In this document: piece by piece, positions 1 to 34,956 of the stretch
Numbering within the stretch: position 1 is the stretch's first letter
Layout: each line of letters begins with the position of its first letter
Virus record (IMG/VR): IMGVR_UViG_3300035703_002708
Reading direction: 5' to 3' (one strand)
Length of the DNA stretch: 64,000 bases
Origin: a virus
Lineage: Duplodnaviria; Caudoviricetes
Translations under genes and position numbers: made by a program
The notes under the pieces: generated by a model
What the model was told of the DNA's origin: nothing
Database searches by the model: none
Seen by the model: only the letters and a program-made list of their open reading frames with translations

Positions 1-42
1 ATGTAAAAATGGTGGAATAAATGTTAGATATTAATTTTATTG

Positions 43-1671
43 ATGGAAATAGAGATAAATAGAAAATGTGACATGGTTGAACATTTTGGATTATCAACCG
101 TTAACGGACTAAGTGCACAACAACACCACGACGCTTTTGGTGTATTTAGAGATTTTGTAAACGAAGTCAAACCGAAAAGAATATTAGAAATAGGAACAGC
201 ATTAGGCGGTTTCATAGAATTTATACACAGATGTACTGTCGAATCGGATTTAGGTACTGAAATATGGAGTTATGACATCCATAATGTTAGTTGGTACAGT
301 GAACTCAATCGAAAGGGAATTCGGGTTAGAGTTGAAGATATATTTTCTAATGATTACTCAGCAGTTAAACAGGAAGTAATAGATTTCATCAAATCTGAAG
401 GTGTCACGATAATAATGTGTGATGGTGGAAACAAAAAAAAGGAATTCGCTATATTATCTAACTACTTAAAAGATGGTGATTTCATATTAGCCCATGATTA
501 TTGCGAAAATTCTGAAATTTTTCAAGAAAAAATAAATGGAAAAATTTGGAATTGGTGTGAAATATCAAATGACGATATTATCGACTCATGTAAACAAAAT
601 AATCTAAATTATTTTAAGAAAGAAATATTCGAATCGGTTGTATGGACATGCAGGGTAAAAGATAGGGCTAAACTAATATCCACAGTTAATACAACAAAGA
701 ATTATATCAAACCTATAAAAAGAAAAAAATTAATCATCCATCAACCGACAAACTTTTACAGTAAAAAAATAAGATATCACAGTATTTTTTGGGATGATTT
801 GATATCAGAACTATCAATAAGGCATGATGTCATAGTCGACAGATATCACAAGGATTGTCATAAAGGAATTGGTAATGTAAAGTTGGAGTTAGACGTAAAC
901 GATTCACCGTCTACTTTGAATGTTTTGGAATGTGAAATGATAATTGAGGATTATGAGACAGGTGAAACTAAGATTTTAAGTTGTGCTGACGATTTAACTC
1001 AAGCGGTCCTCAACCTTAAAGAAAATGATAAGGTAACTGAAATTTTTTATTCGCAGTTTATTCCCCAAAAAATATCATCCCACGTTGGGGAACAATTCAT
1101 TGACAAATACAAACCTTGGATTTATTTCCCATTCAATAAATTCGACTTAGATTTTTTCTATCAAAAAAGAAAAAATTTTGGTAAAAACTTAGTTGATAAA
1201 ATGTTTTTCAGCGGCGATTTAGGTTCTAGACCTTTTGTTAAAAATTTCGAAAAAAAATATTTAGACCATTATGGGTATTTAGGTCAATTTGAAACCTATG
1301 CAAACAGTTTGATAACCTATAAGGTCGCACTTTCTGTTGCGGGTAGAGGGGAGTTATGTTATAGAGATGTTGAGTGTATGGCAATGGGAGTTCCATTTAT
1401 AAGATTCGAATACTTCTCAAAATTGAATCCTAACCTAATTCCGAATTACCATTATATATCGGTTGATAGACCTGATAATTTTGACTCTTGGACCAAACTT
1501 GATAGGTTGGGCGAAAAAGAACAGGCGGACTTATTGATAAAAAGATTCTTGGAGGTTAAAGATGACCACGAATTTTTGAAATATATAAGTGACAATGCAA
1601 AAAAATATTACGAAGATTATTTGAGTCCCGAAAACTCAGTAAAACACACAATAAATTTATTAGGTCTTTAA
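43..1671 (+). CDS. SAM-dependent methyltransferase (CmcI/Methyltransf_24-like) fused to a C-terminal GT-B-type glycosyltransferase-like domain
   Basis: N-terminal PKRILEIGTALGG (SAM motif I), IIMCDGG and FILAHDY. C-terminal KVALSVAGRGELCYRDVECMAMGVP resembles the nucleotide-sugar-binding segment of GT-B enzymes. ATG at 43 (track starts at TTG 40). Confidence 0.65.
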   Translation: MEIEINRKCDMVEHFGLSTVNGLSAQQHHDAFGVFRDFVNEVKPKRILEIGTALGGFIEFIHRCTVESDLGTEIWSYDIHNVSWYSELNRKGIRVRVEDIFSNDYSAVKQEVIDFIKSEGVTIIMCDGGNKKKEFAILSNYLKDGDFILAHDYCENSEIFQEKINGKIWNWCEISNDDIIDSCKQNNLNYFKKEIFESVVWTCRVKDRAKLISTVNTTKNYIKPIKRKKLIIHQPTNFYSKKIRYHSIFWDDLISELSIRHDVIVDRYHKDCHKGIGNVKLELDVNDSPSTLNVLECEMIIEDYETGETKILSCADDLTQAVLNLKENDKVTEIFYSQFIPQKISSHVGEQFIDKYKPWIYFPFNKFDLDFFYQKRKNFGKNLVDKMFFSGDLGSRPFVKNFEKKYLDHYGYLGQFETYANSLITYKVALSVAGRGELCYRDVECMAMGVPFIRFEYFSKLNPNLIPNYHYISVDRPDNFDSWTKLDRLGEKEQADLLIKRFLEVKDDHEFLKYISDNAKKYYEDYLSPENSVKHTINLLGL

Positions 1672-1674
1672 AAA

Positions 1675-4044
1675 ATGCCATTCAGTACAAACTACTTCAA
1701 AGAACAAACAAAACTTTACATTAACGAAAACTTCCCGAAAGAATCCAAAATTTTGGATGTAGGGGCGGGTTCAGCGACCTATTACAACATGCTGTCACCT
1801 TTAGGATATACCAATATAGATTGTGTAGAAATTTTTGAAAAGTACATAAAGGATTATGAACTTGAAAAAAAATATAACCAAGTATTTAACGGCAACATTT
1901 GTGAATTGGATATAGATTTCACAAAATATGACCTAATAATATTAGGTGACGTATTGGAACACATAGACAAAAAAAGTGCAAAAAAACTAATCCAAAAAAT
2001 CGGTGATGTGGCAACTATAATTGGTGTACCATTCGAATCTGAGCAAGGAGAGCATTATGGTAATATTTATGAAACACACTTACAGGCTGATTTGACATTG
2101 GATATTTTCTTAGAAAGATACGACGAATATCAACCACTTTGTTTGAGATTCGATTATGGTATTTTTGTAAATAAAAAAGTCGATATAATTTTTATTGAGA
2201 CCGGTGAAAAAGAACTACCTGAAAAATTTCAGAAAAAAGTAAAATCAGAATTTTCAGAAAAAAAAGTAGTAAATGTTGCAGAAATAACTGTCGAACAACC
2301 AGTAACAGAAAAAAAAAGTAGTGACACAACAATTGTAACAGGTTTGTGGAATTTAGGAAGGGACAAAATATCACAGTCATTTAACAGAAGATATGATGAA
2401 TATCTAACTAGTTTTTCTAAACTTTTGGAATCTGATGCTAACATGTATATATTTTGTGACCCATCCGACGAAGAATTCATTTGGAAACATAGGAAGAAAG
2501 AAAATACTGTTATTAATAAAATGACTCTTGATGAGTTACTGAAATGGTTCGAATTTACAAACATAACAAACGAAATAAGAACTAAAGAAAGTTGGTTATC
2601 CCAAGCTGGATGGTTAAGAGATTCACCTCAAGCTACTTTGGAGGGATATAACCCCTTAGTAATGAGTAAAATGTTTATGTTGAACAACGTAACAATATGG
2701 AACCCATTCAAGTCGGAATACTTTTTTTGGATTGACGCTGGGATAACAAATACTGTTAATTACGGGTATTTCACTCATGATAAAGTTTTTGATAATTTAC
2801 CCAATTTCATAAACTCCAATGGAGAATTCATGTTTATTTCTTATCCATATATAGGTGGTGGTGAGATTCATGGATTTGAGAGAGAGGCAATTGCTAAATA
2901 CTCAAACACTGACTATGTCGATTATGTGTGTAGAGGAGGATTTTTTGGTGGAATCAAAGAAAAAGTGAACGAAATTAATGGAAAATATTATTACTACCTG
3001 TCTAAAACCTTGAATGATGGATTCATGGGTACAGAGGAAAGTGTGTTTACCATAATTTCGAACTTGGAAAAAGATATTTACAGATTTGTAATTGAGGATA
3101 ACGGACTTATTTGGCCTTTTTTCGAAGAATTGAAAAATTATAAAAACCTGAAACCAAAACCAATAAAGGAATTTAATCCGAATTCGTTAATTGATAAAAT
3201 AAGTGAAAATACAAAACAAGAAAAAAATAAAAATCCTGAAGAAATTGCTTTATATGTAATTGGGTTCAATTCCCCAAATCAGTTCAAAACCTTGATTCAT
3301 TCTATGGTTTTTTATGACAAAGATTTTTTAGAAAAACCAAAGAAATATTTATTGGATAACTCAACAGACCTTTCTACAACAGAAGAGTACCAACATCTTT
3401 GTAGTGTTTATGGTTTCGAGCACATTAAAAAAGATAATATTGGTATAACCGGCGGAAGACAATGGATTGCGGAACATTTCGAGGCAAGCGGACACAAGTA
3501 TTATATGTTTTTTGAAGACGATATGTTTTTTTCTTCAGATAGGATTGGAGTGTGTAGAAACGGTTTCAACAGATATGTTCCAAATTTACTCTCAAAACTT
3601 TTAAAAATAATGAAATCCGAAAGATTCCATTATCTAAAATTCAACTTTTCTGAATTTTTTGGTGACAACGGTACTCAGTGGTCTTGGTATAACGTACCTC
3701 AAGTTGTCAGAGAAAAAGAATTTCCTGAAAAAACAAAATTACCTCAACAAGGATTAGACCCCGAGGCGCCAAGGACTATATTTAAGAATATAAAAAGTGT
3801 TGAAGGATTGTCTTATATTACAGGTGATGTGTACTATTCTAATTGGCCTCAGATTATGTCAAAAGAAGGAAATAGAAAATGTTTCATTGATACAAAGTTT
3901 CAGTTTCCTTACGAACAAACAATAATGTCATTTATTTTTCAAGAAACTAGAAAAGGAAATATCAAACCCGCACTATTGTTACTGACACCAACTGAACATA
4001 ATAGGTTTGACCACTATGACGCATCTTTGAGAAAAGAGTGTTAA
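1675..4044 (+). CDS. Three-domain protein: SAM methyltransferase + HtrL/YibB(WlaTC)-like domain + GT-A glycosyltransferase
   Basis: ILDVGAGSATY ... DLIILGDVLEH (class I MTase). TTIVTGLWNLGR ... SKMFML ... NPFKSEYFFWIDAG (HtrL-like). ALYVIGFNSP ... YLLDNST ... NIGITGGRQ ... YMFFEDDMF (GT-A with DxD-type EDD). Confidence 0.7.
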   Translation: MPFSTNYFKEQTKLYINENFPKESKILDVGAGSATYYNMLSPLGYTNIDCVEIFEKYIKDYELEKKYNQVFNGNICELDIDFTKYDLIILGDVLEHIDKKSAKKLIQKIGDVATIIGVPFESEQGEHYGNIYETHLQADLTLDIFLERYDEYQPLCLRFDYGIFVNKKVDIIFIETGEKELPEKFQKKVKSEFSEKKVVNVAEITVEQPVTEKKSSDTTIVTGLWNLGRDKISQSFNRRYDEYLTSFSKLLESDANMYIFCDPSDEEFIWKHRKKENTVINKMTLDELLKWFEFTNITNEIRTKESWLSQAGWLRDSPQATLEGYNPLVMSKMFMLNNVTIWNPFKSEYFFWIDAGITNTVNYGYFTHDKVFDNLPNFINSNGEFMFISYPYIGGGEIHGFEREAIAKYSNTDYVDYVCRGGFFGGIKEKVNEINGKYYYYLSKTLNDGFMGTEESVFTIISNLEKDIYRFVIEDNGLIWPFFEELKNYKNLKPKPIKEFNPNSLIDKISENTKQEKNKNPEEIALYVIGFNSPNQFKTLIHSMVFYDKDFLEKPKKYLLDNSTDLSTTEEYQHLCSVYGFEHIKKDNIGITGGRQWIAEHFEASGHKYYMFFEDDMFFSSDRIGVCRNGFNRYVPNLLSKLLKIMKSERFHYLKFNFSEFFGDNGTQWSWYNVPQVVREKEFPEKTKLPQQGLDPEAPRTIFKNIKSVEGLSYITGDVYYSNWPQIMSKEGNRKCFIDTKFQFPYEQTIMSFIFQETRKGNIKPALLLLTPTEHNRFDHYDASLRKEC

Positions 4045-4077: not shown

Positions 4078-4100
4078 ACTATCTCATATATTTATTATGT

Positions 4101-7100
4101 ATGGAATTTAATATAAAGAAAAATGGAACATTACCACTACTAAAAATGCAAGTGGTAGATGACGGAAGAGGTGAATTTGATTCATTTATGAGTTTTATTG
4201 AAACCTCATCTTTATATTTTTCCATGATGGATGTTGAAACGGGTTCATATAAAATACATTTGGACCCTGCAGGATTTGTAGAAAAAACTCAAATCGACCC
4301 AAATGCCAAAACAGAATACTACATATATTATAAGTTTCCAAAAAAGTACACCAACAAAGTTGGAAGATATGAGGGTGAGTTCGTTCTAAAAAACACAGAT
4401 GGGACACTTGTATTACCAATAAGAGAAAAACTTTACATTAATATTCAAGAAAGTTATGGTATTGAAGATGCTGACGAATTAATCAACTTAAGTTTAAGTT
4501 CGGTAATCACTTCTGGGTCAACAATACTTAATTATGTATTAACATCTGATAAGCCTGTCAAGTATGTCACCACAGTAAACTTTACACATACCTTACAAAC
4601 ATTTACAGGTGACAGTATCGTTATAACAACAGGAGTAACAATCAATCGTGGTGAAAAAGCAGGTGCGGTAACAATCACACTTCCTGACGTTGATTACTTT
4701 AATCTAACTCAAGAAACTAGTTTCTCAAATATAAAAGTATTCCCAATAGGTTTGAGGTCTTACACAAACATCACAGAAAAAGTTGTGTTTGTTTTACCAC
4801 CTTCTCAAAATATAACGGATGCGATTTTAACAGGGGTTCAAGACGAATACATTTCAGTTGGTAACAATTTCTACTTACAATTTATTGACCCAATTATTAT
4901 TGAAGACGCAATCCTTGCCGACCCTGAAAACTATATTAAAGTTGGTGAGGGTGTTTATTTAAGATTTATTGATACACCATCAGTTACCCTGACACCAACA
5001 CAAACTCCTACTCAAACACCAACACTTACTCCAACACCGACAGAAACAACCACACCAACTCCGACTGTTACACCAAGTGAAACACCGGTACCATTAGTTC
5101 CTCTCACACTTTATATTCAACCATTAAGTGGAGGTCAAGCAATTATTTTTGATGGTGTTACTTATACTTCAGAAACAACTGTAAATATTGTTAAAAGCAC
5201 ACCTTATAATATTGAAGCAGTTCCTACACCTGGTTTTGAGTTTGTTGGTTGGAATATATTCGGTGGTTCATTTTCATCTACAGGTCAATCAACGACAGTT
5301 TCGGTATCATTAGATTCGGGGGCTAATCTTGCACCATCATACGCAGTTGACCCCAATTTTGACGCTTTAGAGTACCAGTTGACAACAAGTTTATCAAGTT
5401 ACCAAAATGCAACAGACAACGATTGGGTTATAATTACTCAAGAAGAATATAATAATATATTCGGTAATGTTGACGGTGTTGTCAAAATTGGTAACAGTGA
5501 TGAACAAGTTAATACAAGGGATGTTGCAACAGGATATGATACAACAACTTTTGGTACAATAGATGCTAATACACCTCTTACAATCCCATCAGGATATTAT
5601 GTTGTAGGTTTTGTTGCCGAGTCTTGGAACCAAAACGGACAAGTCCAATTAGGATATACAACCACGTTCCATGAGGGGACTCCAACCTATATGGGTAATA
5701 GTCCGAATGTAATTGGTGGTATGACAATGTTTTACGTAAGGAAAAGACCATCAAATGTTGAAGGAGCGCCAGCATCTACCAATTTGTATCCTGTATTGAA
5801 TTTCTTACCGCCAGCATATCCAAACGCAGTTTTTAACACTTTCGGATGGTACACACTTGATAATGGTGCAAATTGGGCAGAAACGGTTTCGGCATTCCAA
5901 ACCGCTAAAATACAAATATTACTAACTAATATTAAGTCATGGCCATCGGCACCTCTACCAAGTCAAACGCCAACAATAACACCTACACAAACGCCGACTA
6001 AGACATTAACGCCAACAAATACTCAGACACCAACAATAACGCCAACAATAACCCCGACACCTAATTATATTCCATTTATATCTAAGTGGAATGTAAGTTC
6101 TTCTTTGGAGTTACCATATAGTCCCACAGGATTTTATAACGGTACGATAGATTGGGGTGACGGTAATATTTCTGCCAACACCTATGAAAATAGAACACAC
6201 ACATATGACTCACCTGGCGAATATACAGTTACAATTACAGGTAGAATAGAAGGTTGGGATTTTAGATATTTTGGAATAAGTAGTTCTTTGTTATTGACCG
6301 AAGTTATACAGTTCGGTACGATAAGAGGTGAAAATAACACATTTGATGGGATGTTCTATAACTGTTATTCACTTAATATGAACAACTGTGTTGATACACC
6401 TGACTTAGGAGGTATAACATCAACAACATATATGTTTTACTTCTGTCTTGCGATGGATAATATCTCAAATATTAATTCTTGGAATGTCTCGAGTGTAAAA
6501 GATATGTCATTTATGTTTAGAGATTGTCAAACTTTTAACTCAAACATATCAAACTGGAACGTTTCTAATTTACTAAACGCTACAGCAATGTTCCAATATT
6601 GTTGGGCGTTCAATCAAAACATATCAACATGGAATGTGTCTAAAATTACTAGAGTCAATATGGTACAAATGCTCCAAGGTGCTACGTCCTTCAATCAAGA
6701 TTTAAGTTCTTGGTGTGTTCCTTTAATTTCATCAAAACCGCCGCTATTTGATTCAAATACACCGCAATGGGTGTTACCTAAACCAATATGGGGCACATGT
6801 CCAGCACCAACACCCACACCAACACCAACACAAACGGTTACCCCATCCCAAACTCCAATTGTTGGTCCTTTACCTTTTGTTAGTAGATGGACTGCTAATC
6901 CAACTATTGAACTTCCTTTATCACCCACAGGGATTTACTCAGGAACAATAGATTGGGGTGACGGAAATATATCAGATTTAATCTATGACAATAGAGAACA
7001 CACGTATGCCTTCTCAGGTGATTATACCGTAACAATCACAGGACAAATCGAAGGGTGGGACTTTTTAAATTACGCTTACACATACAGACCAAACATTAAG

Positions 7101-7913
7101 GAAATTATGCAGTGGGGAACCTTAAGAGGTGAAGGTAATTCTAATGCTAATTTATTAACAGGTTGTAACAATTTAATTCTTACAGGAGTTACCGATACCC
7201 CAAATTTATCAGGTATAACGTCACTTAATAATATGTTTTCTTTTTGTTCATCTATTTCAACTATATCAAACATGAATAGTTGGGATGTTTCTTGGGTTGA
7301 TGACATGTCAGAAATGTTCTCATATGCAACACTATTCAATCAAAATATAGGAAGTTGGGATGTTTCTAATGTAACTAATATGTCGGGTATGTTTGGTAAC
7401 ACAACTCAATTTAATCAAAACATTGGAAATTGGGATGTCTCAAGTGTTACAAATATGTCTAATATGTTCAATAGTACAAATGTATTTGACCAAAATATCA
7501 GTAATTGGAATGTATCGGGTGCTACAAATATGGACAATATGTTCTTTGGTGCTTTTGTATTCAATCAGGATTTGAGTACTTGGTGCTTACCTCTGATACC
7601 ATCAGAACCAACAGGATTTTCCACAGGTGCAAGTTCGTGGTCGTTACCACAACCATTATGGGGTGGTAGAACAATCTATGTCAATTCATTATGGAATGGT
7701 GCTACCACAATAAATTCAAATTTTTTACAACTTACGCAAACACCTGACACTTTACTCATTAGAGTTAACGACACAATTACTGATGATTTGGATGCAACAT
7801 CAGTTGTTGGTCTTGTAACTTCGGATGGAACTTACACCTACGTAGGCACAGGACCTGGTGGAACTATCGCATTTGATTGTCAATTCCCACTTACATTTAC
7901 GGGACCTTGTTAA
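4101..7913 (+). CDS. Modular fibre/adhesin: BppU-like N-terminal anchor, Thr/Pro linkers, two PKD + BspA(DUF285)-type repeat units
   Basis: N-terminus paralogous to 10231..11058; three (TP)n linkers; two IDWGDG...HTY...G.YTVTITG PKD motifs, each followed by repeats of type WDVSNVTNMSGMF/FNQNIGNWDVS. Confidence 0.75.
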   Translation: MEFNIKKNGTLPLLKMQVVDDGRGEFDSFMSFIETSSLYFSMMDVETGSYKIHLDPAGFVEKTQIDPNAKTEYYIYYKFPKKYTNKVGRYEGEFVLKNTDGTLVLPIREKLYINIQESYGIEDADELINLSLSSVITSGSTILNYVLTSDKPVKYVTTVNFTHTLQTFTGDSIVITTGVTINRGEKAGAVTITLPDVDYFNLTQETSFSNIKVFPIGLRSYTNITEKVVFVLPPSQNITDAILTGVQDEYISVGNNFYLQFIDPIIIEDAILADPENYIKVGEGVYLRFIDTPSVTLTPTQTPTQTPTLTPTPTETTTPTPTVTPSETPVPLVPLTLYIQPLSGGQAIIFDGVTYTSETTVNIVKSTPYNIEAVPTPGFEFVGWNIFGGSFSSTGQSTTVSVSLDSGANLAPSYAVDPNFDALEYQLTTSLSSYQNATDNDWVIITQEEYNNIFGNVDGVVKIGNSDEQVNTRDVATGYDTTTFGTIDANTPLTIPSGYYVVGFVAESWNQNGQVQLGYTTTFHEGTPTYMGNSPNVIGGMTMFYVRKRPSNVEGAPASTNLYPVLNFLPPAYPNAVFNTFGWYTLDNGANWAETVSAFQTAKIQILLTNIKSWPSAPLPSQTPTITPTQTPTKTLTPTNTQTPTITPTITPTPNYIPFISKWNVSSSLELPYSPTGFYNGTIDWGDGNISANTYENRTHTYDSPGEYTVTITGRIEGWDFRYFGISSSLLLTEVIQFGTIRGENNTFDGMFYNCYSLNMNNCVDTPDLGGITSTTYMFYFCLAMDNISNINSWNVSSVKDMSFMFRDCQTFNSNISNWNVSNLLNATAMFQYCWAFNQNISTWNVSKITRVNMVQMLQGATSFNQDLSSWCVPLISSKPPLFDSNTPQWVLPKPIWGTCPAPTPTPTPTQTVTPSQTPIVGPLPFVSRWTANPTIELPLSPTGIYSGTIDWGDGNISDLIYDNREHTYAFSGDYTVTITGQIEGWDFLNYAYTYRPNIKEIMQWGTLRGEGNSNANLLTGCNNLILTGVTDTPNLSGITSLNNMFSFCSSISTISNMNSWDVSWVDDMSEMFSYATLFNQNIGSWDVSNVTNMSGMFGNTTQFNQNIGNWDVSSVTNMSNMFNSTNVFDQNISNWNVSGATNMDNMFFGAFVFNQDLSTWCLPLIPSEPTGFSTGASSWSLPQPLWGGRTIYVNSLWNGATTINSNFLQLTQTPDTLLIRVNDTITDDLDATSVVGLVTSDGTYTYVGTGPGGTIAFDCQFPLTFTGPC
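4975..5090 (+). repeat. Thr/Pro-rich linker repeat (TPSVTLTPTQTPTQTPTLTPTPTETTTPTPTVTPSETP)
   Basis: Translated repeat with diverged codons; similar tracts near 5960-6063 and 6803-6860. Confidence 0.9.
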
Positions 7914-11058: not shown

Positions 11059-11061
11059 TTG

Positions 11062-11850
11062 ATGACAAAAAAATTAATACCTTATATGTCATACTGGTCA
11101 AAAGGGTATCAAGGAAATCCTTCAGACTTTGTTTTAAACTTACATAAGTTATGTTTTTATTTCCTAAAAAAAAATTTTGGAGAAGTTCACTTTATTACCG
11201 ATAGTGAAAGTTTTGATTATTTCAATTTTTTGCCTTGGACTTCAATTTCCAAAGATTTGGATGACTTAAATAGTGAATACAAAAATGTTTGGAGTATAAG
11301 TAAGTTATTTGTTTATCAAATTATTTCACAAAAAGGACATCCTTTTTTTCACGTTGATTATGATGTATTATTACCTGAAGGTTTAGAAGAACAAATTTTG
11401 AAATCGGATTTGTTTGCTCAATGTACCGAACATAATTCAATTCATCACTATAGGATAAATGATTTTTTGAAAAATTGTCCAAACCCATATGAAATAAAGA
11501 ATTTACAAGTGCAAGATGCGATTAACGTAGGTGTTTTAGGTGGTAATGATGTTGAGTTCATTAACAAGTATGCAACAAAGGCACTTCAAATGGTTTTCGA
11601 CCCCTTGAATAAAAATTATTGGTTAAATTATGATGATAGTACAAGTTGGTTAAAGGCGGTAACCGCAGAGCAATATTACTTGTCGGTTTTAGTAAAAAAA
11701 TATAAAAAAAATATAGAATATATTTTTCCTAATGGATGGCCAACCGAACAAGAGGCAAAAGAAAAAAAATTCATACATTTGATGGGAATTAAGGAAAATA
11801 GACAAATATATCCTATCATTGAACAATTAACGAAAAAATATATTGTGTGA
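11062..11850 (+). CDS. Putative nucleotide-diphospho-sugar transferase (DUF6734-like GT-A fold)
   Basis: VHFITDSE, W..SKLFVY, PFFHVDYDV (DxD), AINVGVLGG, AEQYYL, FIHLMG pattern. Confidence 0.55.
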   Translation: MTKKLIPYMSYWSKGYQGNPSDFVLNLHKLCFYFLKKNFGEVHFITDSESFDYFNFLPWTSISKDLDDLNSEYKNVWSISKLFVYQIISQKGHPFFHVDYDVLLPEGLEEQILKSDLFAQCTEHNSIHHYRINDFLKNCPNPYEIKNLQVQDAINVGVLGGNDVEFINKYATKALQMVFDPLNKNYWLNYDDSTSWLKAVTAEQYYLSVLVKKYKKNIEYIFPNGWPTEQEAKEKKFIHLMGIKENRQIYPIIEQLTKKYIV

Positions 11851-11949: not shown

Positions 11950-14739
11950 ATGTTATCACAAGAAGAGATTAAATCCTTTTTAGAAGGAAATGACCCCGAG
12001 CAATATATTGTAGCAGTAGAATTTGATTATGCATCAGACTCAATATTCAAAATCAAAGAAGACCCAATTAAAGGTAAAACAATTCAAAAAGAAAGTTTTA
12101 CCCCTTTCGCATGGGTTGGTGACTTAAAAGACCAAAACTTCTACAAATCCTCCAAAGCATTACAAAAAGAAGCGATGTCAAAATATGGTATCGTTATCGA
12201 GAAATTGGAAACAAAAGGTAATGAAAGGTTAGAACGAGGATTAAAATATATGGTAAAATCCTTAAAGGGTTACCGCTCATTAATCAGTTTTTTCAGAGAT
12301 GGTGGATTAGACCCTTGGGGAGAAAAAACAAAAGACCTCATATTAATTTTGCCACCCGTAGAACAATTTCTCATATCAAAAGAAAAAAGATTGTTCAAAG
12401 GGTTTGAAGAATATAACGATATTACAAGGTTTGTATTCGACTTGGAGACGACCTCTTTGGAACCTAAAGACGGTCGTATCTTTATGATTGGAATCAAAAC
12501 AAATAAAGGATTCCAACAAGTTATCGAATGTGCAACTCCCGAACAAGAAAGAGAAGGGTTAATATCTTTTTTCAAATTAATCGATGCATTAAAACCCTCA
12601 ATTATCGGTGGATATAACTCATTTAACTTCGACTGGTTTTGGATATTTGAAAGATGTAAAGTACTAAACATCGACGTAAAGAAAACTTGTAAAACCCTGA
12701 ACCCCAACTATAACATTTCCCAAAAAGAGAACTTACTAAAATTGGCAAACGAAGTTGAGAAGTATAACCAAATTGGAATGTGGGGTTATAATATTATTGA
12801 TATATTACACTCCGTAAGAAGAGCTCAAGCGATTAACTCAAACATCAAGTCGGCAGGACTTAAATACATTACCCAATATATCGATGCTGAAGCTGAAGAC
12901 CGAGTATATATTGACCACGATAAGATTGGTCCTATGTATGCGAAAAAAGAAGAGTTTTGGCTAAACATTAAAAATGGTAAATATAAAAGAGCCGACAATC
13001 CCGCATTTGAAAACTTGGACACCCGTTTTCCTGGTACATACATTAAAGTCACAGGTGATGAATTGGTAGAAAGATATCTTGACGACGACTTGGAAGAAAC
13101 CCTTTTGGTGGACGAAGAGTTCAATCAAGGAACATTCTTACTTGCATCAATGGTACCAACAACATACGAAAGGGTATCGACGATGGGGACAGCAACTTTA
13201 TGGAAAATGTTGATGTTGGCTTGGTCTTATAAATACAAATTAGCGGTTCCTGAAAAACAATCAAAACAGGACTTCGTTGGTGGACTATCTCGTCTATTGA
13301 GAGTTGGTTATTCAAAAGATGTTCTCAAACTCGACTTTTCATCTCTATACCCATCGATACAACTTGTTCACGATGTATTTCCTGAGTGTGATGTATTACA
13401 AGGAATGAAAGCGATGTTAAAGTATTTCAGAGATACTCGTATCTTGTATAAGAACTTAGCCGGTGAATATGAAAAAACCGATAAAAAAAAGTCATTATCT
13501 TACGACCGAAAACAATTACCTATTAAGATTTTTATCAACTCGATGTTCGGTGCCCTTTCAGCACCACAGGTGTTTCATTGGGGGGATATGTATATGGGAG
13601 AACAAATCACTTGTACAGGAAGACAATATCTTCGTATGATGATTAAGTTCTTTATGAAACGAGGTTATATGCCACTTGTAATGGATACAGACGGTGTTAA
13701 CTTCTCAAAACCTGAGGGGTGTGACGATAGAATTTATATCGGTAAAGGAAACAATTGGAAAGTTAAAAAGGGTAAGGAGTATAAAGGTGCTGACGCTGAT
13801 GTTGCTGAATTTAACGATATGTTTATGAAAGGTGAAATGGCGTTAGATACAGACGGAACTTGGCCTTCGTGTATTAATTTGGCAAGAAAAAACTACGCCT
13901 TGATGACAGACAAGGGTAAAATAAAACTTACAGGAAACACCATCAAGTCAAAGAAACTACCCCTATATATTGAGGACTTTTTGGATAAGGGAATTAAAAT
14001 GTTATTGGAGGGTAAAGGACAAGAGTTTGTTGAATGGTATTACGAATATATACAACAGATATTTGACCAACAGATTCCACTTATGAAAATTGCTCAAAGG
14101 GCTAAGGTAAAACTATCTTTGAGTGACTACGAAAAAAGATGTAATGAAAAAACAAAGGCGGGAAATGCTATGTCAAGGATGGCACATATGGAACTCGCAA
14201 TCAAAAATAAAATCAAGGTAAATCTTGGTGATGTTATCTATTACGTTAACAACGGTGTGAAGGCTTCTCACGGAGATGTTCAAAAGGTAAACAAACCAAA
14301 AAAGGGTTGGACACAAGAGGACTTGGATAATCTGATGGAGAGTTACAGTAAAACTCAATTGGAAATGTTGGATTCATATGTTAAACTTAATTGTTATATG
14401 TTAGACCAACAGGAGTTAGAAAACAACCCCGATTTGAAAGGAGAATATAACGTCCCAAGAGCAATCAGTGTATTTAACAAACGAATCGAACCATTACTTG
14501 TCGTTTTTAAACAAGAAGTTAGAGAAGGTCTTTTGATTACTGACCCTGAAAATCGTGGGTTATTTACAAAAGAGCAGTGTGATTTGGTTAATGGTATTCC
14601 ATTTGAACCTGAAGACCAAGATTCATTAGAGGAAGTTCTGACGATTTCTGAACCCGAAGTTAAGTATTGGGAAAAAAGAGGACTCGAACCCAACTACATG
14701 TATGAGTTAGCCGAACAGGGGTGGGAAGAATTTATTTAA
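11950..14739 (+). CDS. polB: Family B DNA polymerase with 3'-5' exonuclease (T4 gp43-like)
   Basis: ExoI FDLETTS, ExoII GYNSFNFD, ExoIII YLDDD; Pol motifs LDFSSLYPS, KIFINSMFG, MDTDG, ARKNYA. Confidence 0.97.
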   Translation: MLSQEEIKSFLEGNDPEQYIVAVEFDYASDSIFKIKEDPIKGKTIQKESFTPFAWVGDLKDQNFYKSSKALQKEAMSKYGIVIEKLETKGNERLERGLKYMVKSLKGYRSLISFFRDGGLDPWGEKTKDLILILPPVEQFLISKEKRLFKGFEEYNDITRFVFDLETTSLEPKDGRIFMIGIKTNKGFQQVIECATPEQEREGLISFFKLIDALKPSIIGGYNSFNFDWFWIFERCKVLNIDVKKTCKTLNPNYNISQKENLLKLANEVEKYNQIGMWGYNIIDILHSVRRAQAINSNIKSAGLKYITQYIDAEAEDRVYIDHDKIGPMYAKKEEFWLNIKNGKYKRADNPAFENLDTRFPGTYIKVTGDELVERYLDDDLEETLLVDEEFNQGTFLLASMVPTTYERVSTMGTATLWKMLMLAWSYKYKLAVPEKQSKQDFVGGLSRLLRVGYSKDVLKLDFSSLYPSIQLVHDVFPECDVLQGMKAMLKYFRDTRILYKNLAGEYEKTDKKKSLSYDRKQLPIKIFINSMFGALSAPQVFHWGDMYMGEQITCTGRQYLRMMIKFFMKRGYMPLVMDTDGVNFSKPEGCDDRIYIGKGNNWKVKKGKEYKGADADVAEFNDMFMKGEMALDTDGTWPSCINLARKNYALMTDKGKIKLTGNTIKSKKLPLYIEDFLDKGIKMLLEGKGQEFVEWYYEYIQQIFDQQIPLMKIAQRAKVKLSLSDYEKRCNEKTKAGNAMSRMAHMELAIKNKIKVNLGDVIYYVNNGVKASHGDVQKVNKPKKGWTQEDLDNLMESYSKTQLEMLDSYVKLNCYMLDQQELENNPDLKGEYNVPRAISVFNKRIEPLLVVFKQEVREGLLITDPENRGLFTKEQCDLVNGIPFEPEDQDSLEEVLTISEPEVKYWEKRGLEPNYMYELAEQGWEEFI

Positions 14740-15071
14740 GATAACTTCAACCCATCACTTGATGTGATGTACCAATGACCTTGTGCGAAGTAAAACTCAA
14801 CACAAGATTCAGAATTGATTGATAATTCGTCGTACTTTTCATCAAACAAACCAATGTCGGGAATTATAAGTGTGTTAGTCAAAGATTTTACCCTAACATG
14901 GTCTGTTGCCATATGACTTAACTTTAATTTACAAAAGGGAACATCTTTTACTATTATCAAACCCTCACCATTTGAGGTATATTCAGGTTCGGATACAATT
15001 ACAATTTCTGATGATTTTATAATTCTACCACCAATAACTTTTTCAGATGGAATTGAACGAATAATTGCCAT
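14736..15071 (-). CDS. Hypothetical protein, probably virion-associated and co-transcribed with the neck gene
   Basis: 111-aa ORF starting 2 nt after the stop of the gp13-like gene; protein-like composition. Confidence 0.6.
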   Translation of the reverse strand: MAIIRSIPSEKVIGGRIIKSSEIVIVSEPEYTSNGEGLIIVKDVPFCKLKLSHMATDHVRVKSLTNTLIIPDIGLFDEKYDELSINSESCVEFYFAQGHWYITSSDGLKLS

Positions 15072-15072
15072 A

Positions 15073-16197
15073 TTATATTACATATATTTGTCTTGGAAAT
15101 GCTCTAAACTTCATTTGTTTGTTTAGATTTTCAGCGATTAATGCTTCTCTTTCCATTACTTTTTCAGGTTTCAATCTGGTTAATCTACCTTCGGCACCAA
15201 TTAACTCCTCAATCAACTTTGTTTTTTCGTCTTTTGCCTCAGTAGCCAAAGATGTGTAATCCATAGTTAATTCAGAATCAGGTGTTTTAAGATTACCACT
15301 ATATTTACCTCTCACTCTTGATAAGGTTTCTTTTACATAAGCAACAAACCATCTTCTTATCCATTGTTTTGCAGGATTGTTTAAGTCAACCCAATTTAAC
15401 TCATCAAACGGAACATCTGATGGTAATTTTATAATGTCAGGATTGTCTTTTAAACATGAATCTCTATCAGCACCTTCTGTGTCGTAATACCAATACCATA
15501 CCTGACCCCTCATTAAAGTGGCATTACCAAAGTCAAATTTACCACCTGGTGTTTGCATTAAATGTACCGCTTTTTTTCCATCCGGTAACGCGGTCACACG
15601 ATAAGTCAAATCTCCTGCTATAATTCTTCTTTGAATATTGACCTCTTGCATACGAAGTAACATATCAAACGCCGGCATCATAAAATATGAACCAACTGTA
15701 TTACCCATCTGAGCGAAACCACCAGGTCCGCCCAAACCACCTGAACCAATACCTCCGAAAGACCAAGGGTCAAAAAAGATGTTGTTAAGTGTAGATGGGG
15801 TAAACCAAAGTAATTCGTTTATTTCTCTACCTGCTGGTATTTCATAAATCTGTTTACCCATTTCAAGTTGGATAAAATCTTTTTTCAATACCCAATCTCC
15901 ACTATTTTGTAAACCAACAATTTTAGAGTAAGCGTATGAATATCTAGTTTCCCAATCCAAACTTTTAGTTATAAATGCTCTAGATAAGGATTGTGTGTCC
16001 AAGTTAAGATTATATAAAGAAGTCCATTGTGATTCAATTAACCAGTCTTGAACATACTGTGCATAATCTTGTATGGAAAACTCCAATAAAGTATCCATTT
16101 GTTCATCTACTATTTCAATAGAACGAAGTGGAGCACCTAACAAGTGTTTTACTTGGGTGTATAATTTACTTCTATCAGGTTCGGGTATGACAGCCAT
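15073..16197 (-). CDS. Neck/head-completion protein (T4 gp13-like)
   Basis: N-terminal HLLGAPLRSIEIVDEQMDTLLEFSIQDY; C-terminal LSRVRGKYSG...LTMDYTSLATEAKDEK matches the gp13-type pattern. Confidence 0.7.
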   Translation of the reverse strand: MAVIPEPDRSKLYTQVKHLLGAPLRSIEIVDEQMDTLLEFSIQDYAQYVQDWLIESQWTSLYNLNLDTQSLSRAFITKSLDWETRYSYAYSKIVGLQNSGDWVLKKDFIQLEMGKQIYEIPAGREINELLWFTPSTLNNIFFDPWSFGGIGSGGLGGPGGFAQMGNTVGSYFMMPAFDMLLRMQEVNIQRRIIAGDLTYRVTALPDGKKAVHLMQTPGGKFDFGNATLMRGQVWYWYYDTEGADRDSCLKDNPDIIKLPSDVPFDELNWVDLNNPAKQWIRRWFVAYVKETLSRVRGKYSGNLKTPDSELTMDYTSLATEAKDEKTKLIEELIGAEGRLTRLKPEKVMEREALIAENLNKQMKFRAFPRQIYVI

Positions 16198-16223
16198 AGC
16201 GATTGTTTATTAATAAATATCAA

Positions 16224-17762
16224 TTAACCCACCTTTTTTATCAGGGAGTCATTAGGAAATGTATAATTGCCACCGACTATTTTGGTATCAGAATTTTTAA
16301 AAATTAACATCTCACCATTTTTATTGGTAAAAATAATCCAATCCGTTTTGTATGGCTTGACATTTGCGGTACCATAGATTTCATATTTATCATCTGATTT
16401 ATCATAACCAGTAAAAGGTTTGATTTGTGCGGTATGTTTTTTTTCATTGATAACAATCTCGGCATCTATTCCACCCATCATATCATCAGTACTACCAAGT
16501 TTACCTACCTTCAAAACATTTTCATCACCAAACACTTTCTTTAATAAGACTATTGATTGATTTTCGGTTTTCTCACCAAACATACTTGTTCTACTTAAAT
16601 TCGAAATTAGATTTTGAAATGTTTTGGACTTTGTCGAAAAAATTCTGAATTTGAATTGGTCCATAATATGAACCATTCTTCTAACTTCTTCTACTTGTTT
16701 TTTTGGTGATTGACCTATTAATTGTAATGTTGGTTTATTTTGAGACCTTAACAATTTGTTGATATCATTAACCAAAATACAAAAACCGCTATAGTTTGTA
16801 TTAAGATAGTTTATAACTGACCTACCTTCTGATTCTAAATTATAGATACCAGATTGCTCTCCTTCTGTGTATTCATTTTCTTCGTAATACCTGTCAGAAA
16901 AAACATCTTTTAGTATTGATTGAACACCTTTTTTGTAAATTTGTTTTACTGTAGGATTGGTGTTAAAAATAAACCTATAGGCTTCTTTATCCTGTCTTGA
17001 ACACGACTCACTAACACCTTCAGATATTATTCTTTTTGTGTTAACTGACTCATCAAGTTTCGTTTTGACTTTCATGGTGTACATTTTATTTACGAATTTC
17101 CAATTAATTGCTTTGAAAAAGTTTCTGACGTAATCGTCTCTTTTATTTTTGTATCGTAAATAATATGCGTGTTCCCACAAATCAAGACCCAATAACGGAT
17201 ATCCACCATTTCTAACGATGTTCATAAGTGGATTATCTTGGTTTGGTGTAGTCATAATCTTCAAACTACCAGACTTGGTTAATACCAACCAAATCCATCC
17301 TGACCCGAAATTCTTTTTTGCCTTTTCGGTAAATTCTTGTTTGAACCCTAAAAAATTATGGAAGTCCTTTTTAATTCTGTCGTAAATCTGACCACCACAT
17401 TTCTGTTCCGTCGGAGATAACATTTTCCAAAATAAGGCATGATTAAAAGCACCACCAGCGTTATTTCTAATTGTTTTGTTATACTTACCAATTGATTTAA
17501 TTATTTCCTCTAACTCAACATCACCGTAATCTTTTTTACTTAATGCGTCATTTAATTTGTCTACATAAGTTTTGTAATGTCCGTTGTAATGGTAAGACAT
17601 CGTCTCAGGGTCAATAAATTGTTTTAAAGCAGAATAGGAATATGGTAGTTTCTCAATTCCTATTTTTTTCATTTCGTTTATAAACAATTTTTCATTTTCC
17701 TTTGTGTCTATTTCTTTTATTTGATTGGCTATTTGTTCTACTTTCTCTTGAAGTTTTTTCAT
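16224..17762 (-). CDS. sod: Mn/Fe superoxide dismutase fused to a C-terminal PD-(D/E)xK-like domain
   Basis: LPYSYSALKQFIDPETMSYHYNGHYKTY, NNAGGAFNHALFW, FGSGWIWL, TPNQDNP, DLWEHAYY (all four metal ligands). C-terminal E...GID...QIK pattern. Confidence 0.9.
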   Translation of the reverse strand: MKKLQEKVEQIANQIKEIDTKENEKLFINEMKKIGIEKLPYSYSALKQFIDPETMSYHYNGHYKTYVDKLNDALSKKDYGDVELEEIIKSIGKYNKTIRNNAGGAFNHALFWKMLSPTEQKCGGQIYDRIKKDFHNFLGFKQEFTEKAKKNFGSGWIWLVLTKSGSLKIMTTPNQDNPLMNIVRNGGYPLLGLDLWEHAYYLRYKNKRDDYVRNFFKAINWKFVNKMYTMKVKTKLDESVNTKRIISEGVSESCSRQDKEAYRFIFNTNPTVKQIYKKGVQSILKDVFSDRYYEENEYTEGEQSGIYNLESEGRSVINYLNTNYSGFCILVNDINKLLRSQNKPTLQLIGQSPKKQVEEVRRMVHIMDQFKFRIFSTKSKTFQNLISNLSRTSMFGEKTENQSIVLLKKVFGDENVLKVGKLGSTDDMMGGIDAEIVINEKKHTAQIKPFTGYDKSDDKYEIYGTANVKPYKTDWIIFTNKNGEMLIFKNSDTKIVGGNYTFPNDSLIKKVG

Positions 17763-17807
17763 TATAAAATTATATGTTCGTTATCATAAATATCCTTTGA
17801 ATTTGAA

Positions 17808-19562
17808 TTATTCGTGATTATTGATTGAATTGAGTATTAGTTCGGCTACACTACCCTTGTCTAAGTTGTCTCCCATTACAGTTTCAAATATCCCTTTTTT
17901 CCTAATTAAGATGTCATATATCGCACCTTCTATTGTATTTTCAAATAGGGGATAATAAACCAAAACACTATTTTTTTGACCATATCTATAAGCCCTATCC
18001 TCAGCCTGTGAGTGGTCAGATGGAACAAATGATAAATCATTAAATATTACAACCTCAGCGGATGTAAGTGTGATACCAACACCTGCCGCTTTTATGTTTC
18101 CACAAAAAACTTTAACCTTGTCGTTATCTTGAAAATCATCCACAGCCTTTTGTCTCGCGGGTTTAGTGGTGGAACCATCCAAATAGACCGACATCTTCCC
18201 GAAGTGTTCGTGAATCCGTTTGAGTGGCTCAGTAAAGTTTGAAAAAATAATAACTTTCTTACCTTGTTCTAAAATGTTTTCAGCAATTTCTATAGTCTGA
18301 GAAACCTTTTCTTCAGCAATCACCTGTCTTACTTTCATCAGTTTTGAAAATTGAATTGTAAGTGAGGATGATTCCTCTCTATTGTTTCTAAACCAATCAA
18401 AATACTCACCCATCAGATTTTCATACTCCCGTGATTTTAATCTCAAATAAACAGGATTTATAATCTTTTCAGGTAAATCTAACACATCTGTTTTTAATCT
18501 ACGAAGTATTTGTTTTGAGGTTCTCTCACGAAGTTCATCCAAATTAGACGCTCCGTTTACGTTCCACACTTTTCTTTGACCTGCTCTAAACTGATAACCC
18601 TCACAAAAACGAATTACATACGCCATCCAATTTTGAGCCACAGGGGACTCAACCAAAGATAATAAATTATAATAATCAATAGGACGAGATGTAATTGGTG
18701 TTCCAGTCAATAACCACAATCTATTAACATTTTTAACAAAATGATTTATAAGTTTTGTTCTTTGTGCCTGAGAATTTTTAATGTAATGGGCCTCGTCAAT
18801 TATAATCAAATCAAACTTAGCATTTAATATCTGTGAGTTTTCTTTGTCTTTAATGTCGTGAAAGTTTTTGATGATATCGTAATTTATAATAACAAAATCG
18901 TGGTCTGATGAGAAATTCTTACCTTCACATATATAAATTGATTGGTCGGTATAGTTCTCGATTTCTCTTGCCCAATTTATTTTAAGCGATGCGGGACAAA
19001 TAATTAATACCTTTTTCGCTCCTGACTCTAACGCTGCGATAATAGTTGAGGTTGTTTTACCCAAACCCATATCATCTGCTAATATAAATCTTTTACTTCC
19101 CGCCAATTTCTCAATCGCTTCTTTTTGATGCGAAAGAGGTGGTCTATGACTATACTTTGAGTAATCAATATCAACTTTTTCTACGGTGTGTGTTTTAATC
19201 AGAGCTCCTTTGGGGACCCAAAAGTCACTTAAATGTTCTGACTCGAAAAACTTACCCCAAATATGATAAGATTTTTCTTTTTCTACTAATAGTTTTTCTA
19301 CATAGATTTTATCAGGAACCTCACGAAACAATTTTTCATCCGCAAATTTTCTTGCAAAATATGGGTCCAAATCAACCCACTTTTTGGCAACCTTTGGTTT
19401 TTCGTTATGGTATGTAATTATATAATCAGATTGTGTTCTTGTTGGAAAGAACTTTTTATTAACCAAATGTTGTTGCTTTAATCTCAATATAAAATTATTA
19501 CCGCCCTCGTAAGAAGATAAAATATCAATCGCCTTTTGTTCTATTGAGATTAGGTTTTCCAA
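17808..19562 (-). CDS. SNF2-family (SMARCAL1/HARP-like) SF2 helicase/ATPase
   Basis: ILADDMGLGKT, IICPASLK.NW, IIIDEAH, LLTGTP, AAGVGITLT, QAEDRAYRYGQ. Likely start is TTG at 19562. Confidence 0.92.
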   Translation of the reverse strand: MENLISIEQKAIDILSSYEGGNNFILRLKQQHLVNKKFFPTRTQSDYIITYHNEKPKVAKKWVDLDPYFARKFADEKLFREVPDKIYVEKLLVEKEKSYHIWGKFFESEHLSDFWVPKGALIKTHTVEKVDIDYSKYSHRPPLSHQKEAIEKLAGSKRFILADDMGLGKTTSTIIAALESGAKKVLIICPASLKINWAREIENYTDQSIYICEGKNFSSDHDFVIINYDIIKNFHDIKDKENSQILNAKFDLIIIDEAHYIKNSQAQRTKLINHFVKNVNRLWLLTGTPITSRPIDYYNLLSLVESPVAQNWMAYVIRFCEGYQFRAGQRKVWNVNGASNLDELRERTSKQILRRLKTDVLDLPEKIINPVYLRLKSREYENLMGEYFDWFRNNREESSSLTIQFSKLMKVRQVIAEEKVSQTIEIAENILEQGKKVIIFSNFTEPLKRIHEHFGKMSVYLDGSTTKPARQKAVDDFQDNDKVKVFCGNIKAAGVGITLTSAEVVIFNDLSFVPSDHSQAEDRAYRYGQKNSVLVYYPLFENTIEGAIYDILIRKKGIFETVMGDNLDKGSVAELILNSINNHE

Positions 19563-19614
19563 AAAAATAGTTTTATAACTAAAAATAAGAAATGAGTAAA
19601 TATTTATCAATATT

Positions 19615-34631: not shown

Positions 34632-34632
34632 T

Positions 34633-34956
34633 ATGGCTTTACAATATTACAATAGATATCAAAATTTCTTGGTGAATGGCACTCAAACTGTTGTACCGTT
34701 TGTGAAATTACCAACCAAAACGACTGATAAGAAATATGTTTATAAAACAAATATGTCAAGAATGGACAAAATATCTCAGCAGTTTTATGATAGTCCATTT
34801 TTCGGTTGGTTAATAATGGCGGCAAACCCTGAATTCGGTGGAAATGAATTTATAATACCTGATGGTACAGTATTAACAATACCATTCCCTTTATTATCTT
34901 CTTTACAGGACTATAATAATACATTAGAAACACATTTTTATTATTATGGCAGATAA
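34633..34956 (+). CDS. LysM-like baseplate protein (T4 gp53/P2 gpX-like)
   Basis: RMDKISQQFYDSPFFGWLIMAANP...IPDGTVLTIP. Confidence 0.75.
   Translation: MALQYYNRYQNFLVNGTQTVVPFVKLPTKTTDKKYVYKTNMSRMDKISQQFYDSPFFGWLIMAANPEFGGNEFIIPDGTVLTIPFPLLSSLQDYNNTLETHFYYYGR

Follow-up and report, generated by a model that had tools for sequence, protein, structure and literature searches.

A superoxide dismutase fused to a restriction-endonuclease-fold module in a T4-related freshwater phage, and its candidacy as a cleavable head cargo

This work concerns a phage gene that encodes a superoxide dismutase (SOD) in one open reading frame (ORF) with a second, nuclease-like protein. The gene occupies positions 16224-17762, on the minus strand, of a 64,000-nucleotide stretch of viral DNA (IMG/VR virus record IMGVR_UViG_3300035703_002708), which is referred to here as a whole as the window. 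The source phage is a large, uncultured, T4-related myovirus from freshwater. A preliminary description of this DNA had reported a complete ORF with an SOD followed in frame by a further C-terminal part; the ORF was found as claimed and encodes 512 amino acids, which we call SOD-X, the part that follows the linker being module X. The interpretation that we favor, and to which we give an even chance, is that SOD-X is a late polyprotein that enters the prohead, is cut there into a free SOD and a free nuclease, and is ejected with the DNA. The parts of the gene on which this interpretation draws are the following.

16224-17762, minus strand: whole gene with ATG start, 512 residues, comprising leader, Mn-type SOD, linker and module X (from the ORF, Pfam and models)
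17673-17762, minus strand: leader, 30 residues, K/E-rich and helical, with I-N-E at its end (residues 28-30, nucleotides 17673-17681)
17085-17657, minus strand: Fe/Mn SOD domain, residues 36-226, Mn-type, ligands H58, H108, D194 and H198 (from Pfam and an alignment)
17007-17084, minus strand: linker, residues 227-252 (26 residues), with two conserved [L/I]-x-E triplets
17049-17057, minus strand: linker triplet L-D-E, residues 236-238, present in 95% of 79 relatives
17019-17027, minus strand: linker triplet I-S-E, residues 246-248, present in 95% of 79 relatives
16593-17006, minus strand: helical subdomain of module X, residues 253-390, with the conserved motif GRSxxNxLNTNYxxFC...N
16227-16592, minus strand: PD-(D/E)xK-fold subdomain of module X, residues 391-512 (from a predicted model and structure searches)
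16563-16565, 16482-16484, 16464-16466 and 16419-16427, minus strand: putative catalytic residues E400, D427, D433 and Q446-I-K448, respectively

We propose that the leader is a propeptide or capsid-targeting element; right behind it, the SOD has kept a Met-Lys-Lys start of its own (MKKIGIEKLPY, residues 31-41). The linker quoted in the preliminary description, KLDESVNTKRIISEG, lies at residues 235-249, and the stretch that it had singled out towards the C terminus, GEKTENQ...GGIDAEIVINEKKHTAQIKPF, is present in the protein, as is GGIDAEI...AQIKPF.

Over 150 metagenomic clusters from related phages carry the fusion. With the C-terminal 281 residues as the query, 102 clusters (at the 90% identity level) were retrieved at 36-96% identity, the majority of which are ~510 residues long and have both SOD domains; querying with the N-terminal part retrieved far more. 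Residue conservation was read from an alignment of 158 full-length members, to which all counts out of 158 given below refer. Further, the joint between the SOD and the linker is crossed by contigs from three other, independent freshwater metagenome studies: a contig of 2,704 nucleotides (X6) spans positions 16115-18000 without a gap, and the joint is also bridged by contigs from X4 (16567-17107) and X2 (16907-17121).

The SOD part shows every residue expected, from its sequence, in an active, dimeric Mn-type enzyme. Both Pfam halves are present, Sod_Fe_N (PF00081) at residues 36-116 (E 1.7e-22, 80.1 bits against a gathering cut-off of 27) and Sod_Fe_C (PF02777) at residues 124-226 (E 1.8e-37, 127.9 bits against a gathering cut-off of 20.9). 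The metal ligands H58, H108, D194 and H198 are each conserved in 158/158 members, as are the gateway residues H62 and Y66, Q175 of the NQD motif, W196, and the dimer-interface residues E197 and Y201. Fe/Mn SODs of the Mn type are recognized by a Gly-Gly pair ahead of the second His ligand and by an outer-sphere Gln from the C-terminal domain; in SOD-X, the pair is supplied by NNAGG at residues 100-104. The preliminary description of a complete SOD domain with His/His/Asp/His ligands, NNAGG and NQD thus stands, and the signature is Mn-type, an assignment made from signature residues, since metal preference is not readable from sequence. We note that SODs of phage records in INPHARED match the SOD part alone, with 27-46% identity, and that a 501-residue fusion member in UniProt/BFVD carries the label "superoxide dismutase" and nothing more.

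The preliminary description had also assigned a PD-(D/E)xK fold and motif to the C-terminal domain of ~280 residues, and here a predicted model, Foldseek and an exhaustive structure search agree with it. An AlphaFold2 model of residues 232-512, built on an alignment of 45 sequences, had a predicted local distance difference test (pLDDT) score of 87 and a predicted template modelling score (pTM) of 0.79, and consists of a helical subdomain followed by an alpha/beta subdomain. In the exhaustive structure search, the top 25 VIA rows were all PD-(D/E)xK-fold proteins (Z 7.8 to 4.5) and matched the second subdomain only; Z-scores of 7-8 are in the middling range according to the tool's own note. 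Model residues 160-281 matched Hjc (2wcw) with Z 7.8 and a root-mean-square deviation of 3.6 over 102 aligned residues, followed by NhoI (Z 7.4), I-Ssp6803I (Z 7.3) and HhaI (Z 7.0), and then by tRNA-splicing endonucleases, DpnI and PvuII. Foldseek returned I-Ssp6803I (2ost; E 2e-3, probability 1.0) and the SPARDA DREN domain (9qcc; probability 1.0). The structure matches in the ESM Atlas were PDDEXK_5 clusters (template modelling score 0.63 by target), and a language-model feature search of the Atlas gave PD-(D/E)xK-type neighbors alone, all below 0.9 and to be taken as leads only. The helical subdomain (residues 253-390) had no structural match in the exhaustive search with the module X model.

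The residues that a nuclease of this fold would use are conserved as well. E400, D427, D433, Q446 and K448 are found in 158/158 full-length members, and among representatives at 50% identity the corresponding counts are 115/120, 122/124, 128/128, 127/130 and 129/130. In the model, E400 lies in the helix formed by residues 380-411, D433 just ahead of the strand at 434-438 (beta2), and Q446-x-K448 inside the strand at 441-449 (beta3). Because the matches are consistent with one another and the conserved residues stand where the fold requires them, we consider the fold assignment credible despite the moderate scores, and we conclude from the model that the last ~120 residues of module X adopt a predicted PD-(D/E)xK nuclease fold with an invariant E-D-D-QxK set at the canonical places. 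We also note two cysteines, C254 (16999-17001) and C328 (16777-16779), each of which is present in 157/158 members of the SOD-linked branch and is not invariant in distant stand-alone X members; they may be paired in a disulfide or contribute to a metal site.

Module X is not a member of any family that we searched by sequence. Pfam had no match for residues 232-512 at E<=1, and when the 45 aligned X modules were searched, only scattered chance matches were obtained (32 matched), with PDDEXK_5 (PF11645) not among the 25 families listed. PHROGs contained nothing that matched either the complete protein or any of ten diverse X members, a profile search with X had no match among PDB sequences even at E<=10, and in the isolated phages of INPHARED the region was unmatched at the DNA level, as was X by tblastn at the same limit of E<=10. 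When 1.84 billion representatives were searched with a profile, by contrast, 443 clusters related to X were obtained at the 50% identity level, and X is therefore a sizeable, unnamed family. Most of its clusters are stand-alone proteins of 240-300 residues with the same two subdomains, and the taxon labels encountered were viral; by these sequence searches, the family appears restricted to phages. Some members have X at the C terminus of a very long protein, namely P0184 (1,109 residues) and BFVD A0A8D9CCA0 (1,113 residues, from an uncultured marine phage), whose first ~850 residues had no Pfam family match. The long X fusions P0184, P0189, P0207, P0229, P0232 and P0241 had no informative Pfam domain besides a weak DUF4314, and the distant stand-alone members P0240 and P0214 are on contigs of ~2 kb, where the gene context was uninformative. 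One relative, G007, which encodes a 518-residue SOD-X, carries the nuclease half of X once more, in a distant version, at another site (118365-118841; L188, within a 346-residue ORF; E 3.6e-13).

If SOD-X is a precursor, its cut sites would be expected at the joints between its parts. In T4, the prohead protease gp21 cuts after [L/I]-x-E, and the 10 N-terminal residues of the internal protein IPIII suffice to load foreign proteins, EcoRI and staphylococcal nuclease included, into the head, after which gp21 removes the tag; an Asp at P1 prevents processing in T4 (PMC9026906). T4 IPI contains the site ...TITE|A. When counted over 79 full-length relatives, [L/I]-x-E was conserved at four columns of SOD-X only: residues 28-30 at the end of the leader (78% of the relatives have the triplet ending there), residues 236-238 and 246-248 in the linker, and the buried L-W-E of the SOD active site. 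Further, the junction formed by [L/I]-x-E and then MKKIGIEKLPY is retained ahead of the SOD behind either the leader or, in relatives described below, a zincin domain. The joints that bear the triplets are also the lowest-confidence segments of a model of the full-length protein (pLDDT below 50 at residues 19-33 and 234-239, and 62 at residues 241-250), and this model had a pTM of 0.52, which indicates two independent bodies with no fixed mutual orientation.

Stand-alone members of the X family show a similar feature, in that 34 of 73 representatives have [LI]xE ending at residues 4-14. Shuffling gave 8.9 +/- 2.7 such cases (maximum 18 in 1000), later 11-residue bins of the same proteins gave 4-22%, and the genes of the window, 5/36; the window's own genes were used as this background, and ORFs pooled from 80 loci were discarded because of repeated neighbor families. 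The protease that would cut at these sites is encoded by relatives of the phage: the relatives G001 and G002 contain a gp21-type protease (PF03420, E 1e-24; in G002, the ORF at 242155-242646) and a gp23-type major capsid protein (PF07068). The relatives' capsid protein has ...LINE|ATSDG where T4 gp23 has its maturation site, ...FLTE|AEIGG (aligned pieces: G001 L097, 13-1869 on the minus strand, and T4 gp23 L099, 4946-5305). The gene upstream of the G001 major capsid protein encodes a very acidic, scaffold-like protein of 403 residues.

We made a related observation in G002 (322,477 bp), where a tag resembling MK-(I/L)-(I/L)-I-T-E-(S/N) opens 25 of the 341 crude ORFs, compared with ~1 expected by chance. 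These ORFs (L189-L205, for example 313405-317767, 161392-162601, 14705-15505 and 34621-38330) are mostly located near the genome ends. When their first 14 residues were removed, BLASTP clustered 7 of them and left 18 as singletons, which indicates a common N-terminal tag on otherwise dissimilar small proteins. The leader of the G002 SOD-X holds the same L-I-T-E, and across the lineage the tag may serve in capsid targeting or processing.

The position of the SOD-X gene is fixed in the phages that we compared, and its content is not. The features that flank it in the window are as follows.

15073-16197, minus strand: downstream neighbor, a T4 gp13-type neck (head-tail adaptor) gene with a TATTTAT motif of its own (PF26809 in syntenic relatives)
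17786-17792, minus strand: TATTTAT promoter-like motif of the SOD-X gene, separated from the ATG by 23 bases
17808-19610, minus strand: upstream neighbor, an SNF2-family helicase gene, the slot's conserved boundary on the left

All contigs examined share the order SNF2 helicase, slot, gp13-type neck gene and a gene of ~110 residues, with PolB next on the other strand, so the placement of SOD-X in the neck-gene block in the preliminary description is borne out by the gp13-type gene directly downstream. In this phage, the slot holds leader-SOD-X (512 residues). In relatives it holds leader-X (294 residues), leader-SOD alone (230-262 residues, ending a few residues into the linker), or a zincin-like HExxH domain followed by SOD (364 residues). 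Among relatives rated complete, G001 (318 kb, CheckV 100%) has X and no Fe/Mn SOD anywhere in the genome, and G005 (321 kb, terminal repeats, complete at 100%) has SOD and no X anywhere in the genome. This indicates that both modules are accessory and that neither requires the other. Because SOD and X come and go independently, the suggestion in the preliminary description that protection from reactive oxygen species is coupled to DNA binding found no support. In four relatives (P0315, P0309, P0306 and P0324, on contigs of up to 68 kb), the X part of SOD-X ends after 60-150 residues; these early ends, together with the linker residues left on the SOD-only forms, suggest that X has been lost repeatedly, through truncation or deletion.

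The two modules also differ in how fast they change. The mean pairwise identity among the 158 members is 73% for SOD and 45-47% for the subdomains of X, and at 19 loci with both flanks, X is ~60% identical where gp13 is 70-90% identical. Across these loci, the identity of X tracks that of the flanks (Spearman 0.77 with gp13 and 0.72 with the helicase), whereas in a few close pairs gp13 is at least 97% identical and X just 65%. Since its identity follows the flanks, X is mainly vertically inherited, and it is fast-evolving and sometimes exchanged. Fast evolution fits a protein that meets host factors, and fits a homing endonuclease less well.

The motif that the preliminary description had noted ahead of the gene was confirmed at the position given above and is common to structural genes. 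Across the window, TATTTAT occurs 39 times against 39.9 expected, and so is not above chance. It lies 11-45 nucleotides upstream (first base to start codon) of 16 of the 37 gene starts, however, and these 16 include SOD-X and the gp13-like neck, sheath, tube and baseplate genes; examples are at 4089, 7959, 16213 (minus strand), 17786 (minus strand), 19601, 21412 and 25645, with others at 26237, 27190, 29990, 46112, 51591, 53954 and 63370. It is found 69 nucleotides upstream of polB, and is not found upstream of the gp32-like, RecA-like and 5'-3' exonuclease genes in the window. From this distribution, TATTTAT is a candidate late-type promoter element, unlike T4's TATAAATA, and the SOD-X gene would probably be expressed late.

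Taken together, these observations suggest the following course of events for SOD-X. The leader would bring the precursor into the prohead core, as capsid-targeting sequences do in T4, and the prohead protease would cut the precursor, with predicted new N termini at residues 31, 239 and 249, so that an SOD dimer and a separate nuclease-fold protein are released. Both would remain in the filled head and be ejected into the host along with the DNA, where the SOD may clear superoxide as infection begins and the nuclease may attack host or competing DNA. Packaging, cleavage, both enzyme activities and their targets are here deduced from genes and sequence motifs, and we favor this reading because the joints resemble T4 head-protease cut sites. 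Where the preliminary description had left the choice between a packaged or late protein and a cleavable polyprotein, we favor the cleavable form, given the triplets at the joints, the protease in relatives and the separate occurrence of the modules in the slot, with the cleavage itself remaining presumptive.

Several points weigh against this reading. All members come from uncultured phages; the structural Z-scores of the X matches (7-8) are middling on the tool's own scale; and the prohead protease and capsid genes were found in relatives and not within the 64-kb window. The leader, at 30 residues, is longer than the 10-19 residues of T4 internal proteins, and a leader-like stretch is internal in the zincin-SOD forms. 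[L/I]-x-E is short and favored in K/E/L/I-rich helices, and relatedness among the sequences inflates the conservation counts. The SOD-X gene adjoins neck genes, which the genes of T4 internal proteins do not. Finally, a DNase stored alongside the genome in the head would have to be kept inactive, unless the phage DNA were protected.

A broader version of the proposal is that, in this lineage of ~320-kb freshwater phages, the [I/L]-(T/x)-E leader is a general capsid-loading and processing tag on dozens of unrelated proteins and the slot a swap-in cassette that delivers a changing enzyme kit (Mn-SOD, restriction-fold nuclease and zincin peptidase) to the host with the DNA. Such a system would be a natural counterpart of engineered T4 packaging by capsid-targeting sequences, and the phage would be the first shown to inject an antioxidant enzyme; we offer this version tentatively, as the less probable of the two.

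The main alternative to packaging, possible if rather unlikely, is that SOD-X is an uncut, bifunctional late enzyme that never leaves the cytoplasm, in which the SOD limits oxidative damage during assembly, the nuclease acts in host DNA degradation or phage DNA processing, and the triplets are incidental. Both modules look catalytically intact by their sequences, and the frame of the fusion has been kept over deep divergence, as would be expected of such an enzyme. Further, the leader is a K/E/I/L-rich helix, in which [L/I]-x-E triplets are common, and an early [LI]xE occurs by chance in the 5/36 window genes mentioned above. The triplets, however, are fixed at the joint columns and conserved almost nowhere else, and the same junction is found ahead of SOD regardless of which domain lies upstream of it. 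The enrichment at the N terminus is 3-4 fold over controls among the 73 diverse stand-alone members, and the independent swapping of the modules argues against a need for their physical coupling.

The position of the gene suggests a different role, namely that X is the functional counterpart of the T4 head-completion nuclease gp4 and acts at the portal or neck while head and tail are joined, the SOD being carried along as a passenger; we regard this as improbable. In all contigs examined, the gp13-type neck gene follows this gene directly, and the late-type motif is one that structural genes also have; T4 gp4 is likewise a restriction-endonuclease-fold nuclease (PF08722; PMC7824862). A PF08722 search of four related records returned one weak 20-bit match, in G001, and none in the others, but the control genomes were also unmatched, so these negatives are not evidence of absence. 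Against such a role, hhalign of the X alignment with T4 gp4 gave a probability of 0.16%, X had no Pfam match, and X evolves much faster than the neck gene. The complete genome G005 lacks X, and in many phages the slot is taken by an SOD-only or a zincin-SOD form; X is therefore not essential for morphogenesis. We dropped the idea of a neck-associated or head-completion replacement for T4 gp4 on the grounds that G005 lacks X and that the direct homology test failed.

Marginally less probable again is that X is a free-standing or domesticated homing endonuclease that invaded the intergenic region between the helicase and neck genes and became fused to a neighboring SOD gene. The best Foldseek match is indeed the homing endonuclease I-Ssp6803I, and the Atlas matches are intron-associated PDDEXK_5 clusters, yet X has no Pfam PDDEXK_5 match and the likeness is structural only. 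Consistent with homing, X is present or absent among related phages, truncated copies exist, and the pairs with gp13 at least 97% and X 65% identical suggest exchange at the slot; nuclease genes are described as often marking exchange boundaries in phages (PMC10448857). On the other hand, X identity tracks the flanks, as for mainly vertical descent, and X is single-copy, at one locus, in G001 and G002. Its catalytic residues are invariant over ~440 representative clusters, without the decay typical of homing cycles, and it has a conserved leader and stays in frame with SOD. Last, an assembly chimera or a sequencing-derived loss of the stop codon between two genes, for which nothing was found beyond a few relatives with frameshifted or truncated X parts, has practically no chance of being correct and is excluded by the more than 150 independently assembled full-length copies that keep the frame, the gap-free contigs of three other studies over the joint, and the conservation of the joint sequence itself.

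Phage SODs, PD-(D/E)xK nucleases and T4 capsid targeting are each known already, and the literature that we searched had no description of the fusion, of the X family or of a modular cargo slot with protease-type joints. The analysis defines a phage-only PD-(D/E)xK family of ~440 clusters at 50% identity that is named in no protein-family library. If the cargo reading is correct, it would mean that T4-type capsid targeting naturally loads real enzymes, with the payload shuffled by module at one slot, and a packaged SOD would bear on whether oxidative stress at DNA entry limits infection in oxygenated, sunlit waters.

The rest of the window is in keeping with a T4-related myovirus. It contains, in addition to the gp13-type neck gene, a sheath gene, a gp19-like tube gene, a T4 baseplate protein, gp32-like and RecA-like proteins and a family-B polymerase, and the related contigs are 297-322 kb long and rated complete. 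The tail sheath protein (21455-24667, plus strand) is unusually long at 1,070 residues, and its match to the sheath family is limited to the last ~300. A 1,270-residue protein (4101-7913, plus strand) with DUF285 repeats (E 6e-67) and a PKD domain is probably a fiber or adhesin, its domain type being a hint at the host surface. Two methyltransferase-like ORFs (40-4044 and 11059-11850, plus strand), one of which is fused to an HtrL/YibB-type domain, and a DUF6734 protein are also present, and may possibly have DNA- or glycan-modifying roles beside the fiber-like genes.

Of the systems with which SOD-X can be compared, the internal head proteins of T4 and Alt are closest to the reading that we favor. 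The phage has a T4-type background (homologues of gp13, gp19, gp21, gp23 and gp32), SOD-X has an N-terminal Met-Lys leader with [L/I]-x-E at its end and lies at an accessory locus that varies and evolves fast, and the payload is enzymatic, as is Alt, an ADP-ribosyltransferase. Engineered fusions to capsid-targeting sequences have, moreover, carried nucleases into T4 heads (PMC9026906). Unlike the T4 proteins, SOD-X has a longer leader and two payloads per chain with internal candidate cut sites, its gene adjoins neck genes, and its packaging is a prediction; neither an SOD, nor a restriction-enzyme-fold protein, nor a zincin domain is known as T4 cargo.

SOD-X may also be compared with the polyvalent proteins (Iyer et al. 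2017, PMC5512222), in which unrelated effector domains in one chain are predicted to travel with the DNA and zincin-like HExxH domains are frequent partners, as in the zincin-SOD relatives that occupy the same slot. It differs from them in being much smaller, with two domains, and in its proposed processing by the prohead protease and not by an embedded peptidase; a text search of PMC5512222 did not find the term superoxide dismutase.

With the nucleases Hjc, I-Ssp6803I (PDDEXK_5) and SPARDA DREN, module X has the core fold in common, and its acidic residues and lysine come in the same order, with Glu on the first helix, Asp at the start of beta2 and x-K in beta3. It departs from them in having Q-x-K for (D/E)-x-K, in belonging to no Pfam family, and in the helical subdomain of ~140 residues, with a conserved motif of its own, that precedes its core. 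T4 gp4 (PF08722, TnsA-like) is similarly a restriction-enzyme-fold nuclease of T4-type phages tied to late head or neck steps, but has no detectable homology to X, and X is dispensable at the level of the lineage. Finally, stand-alone SODs are encoded by other viruses, such as those annotated sodB in jumbo phages resembling Pseudomonas phage PA5oct, and Megavirus carries a Cu,Zn-SOD in its particle; here, in contrast, the enzyme is of the Fe/Mn family and of Mn type by its signature, is set in a framework of leader and linker, and is fused to other modules.

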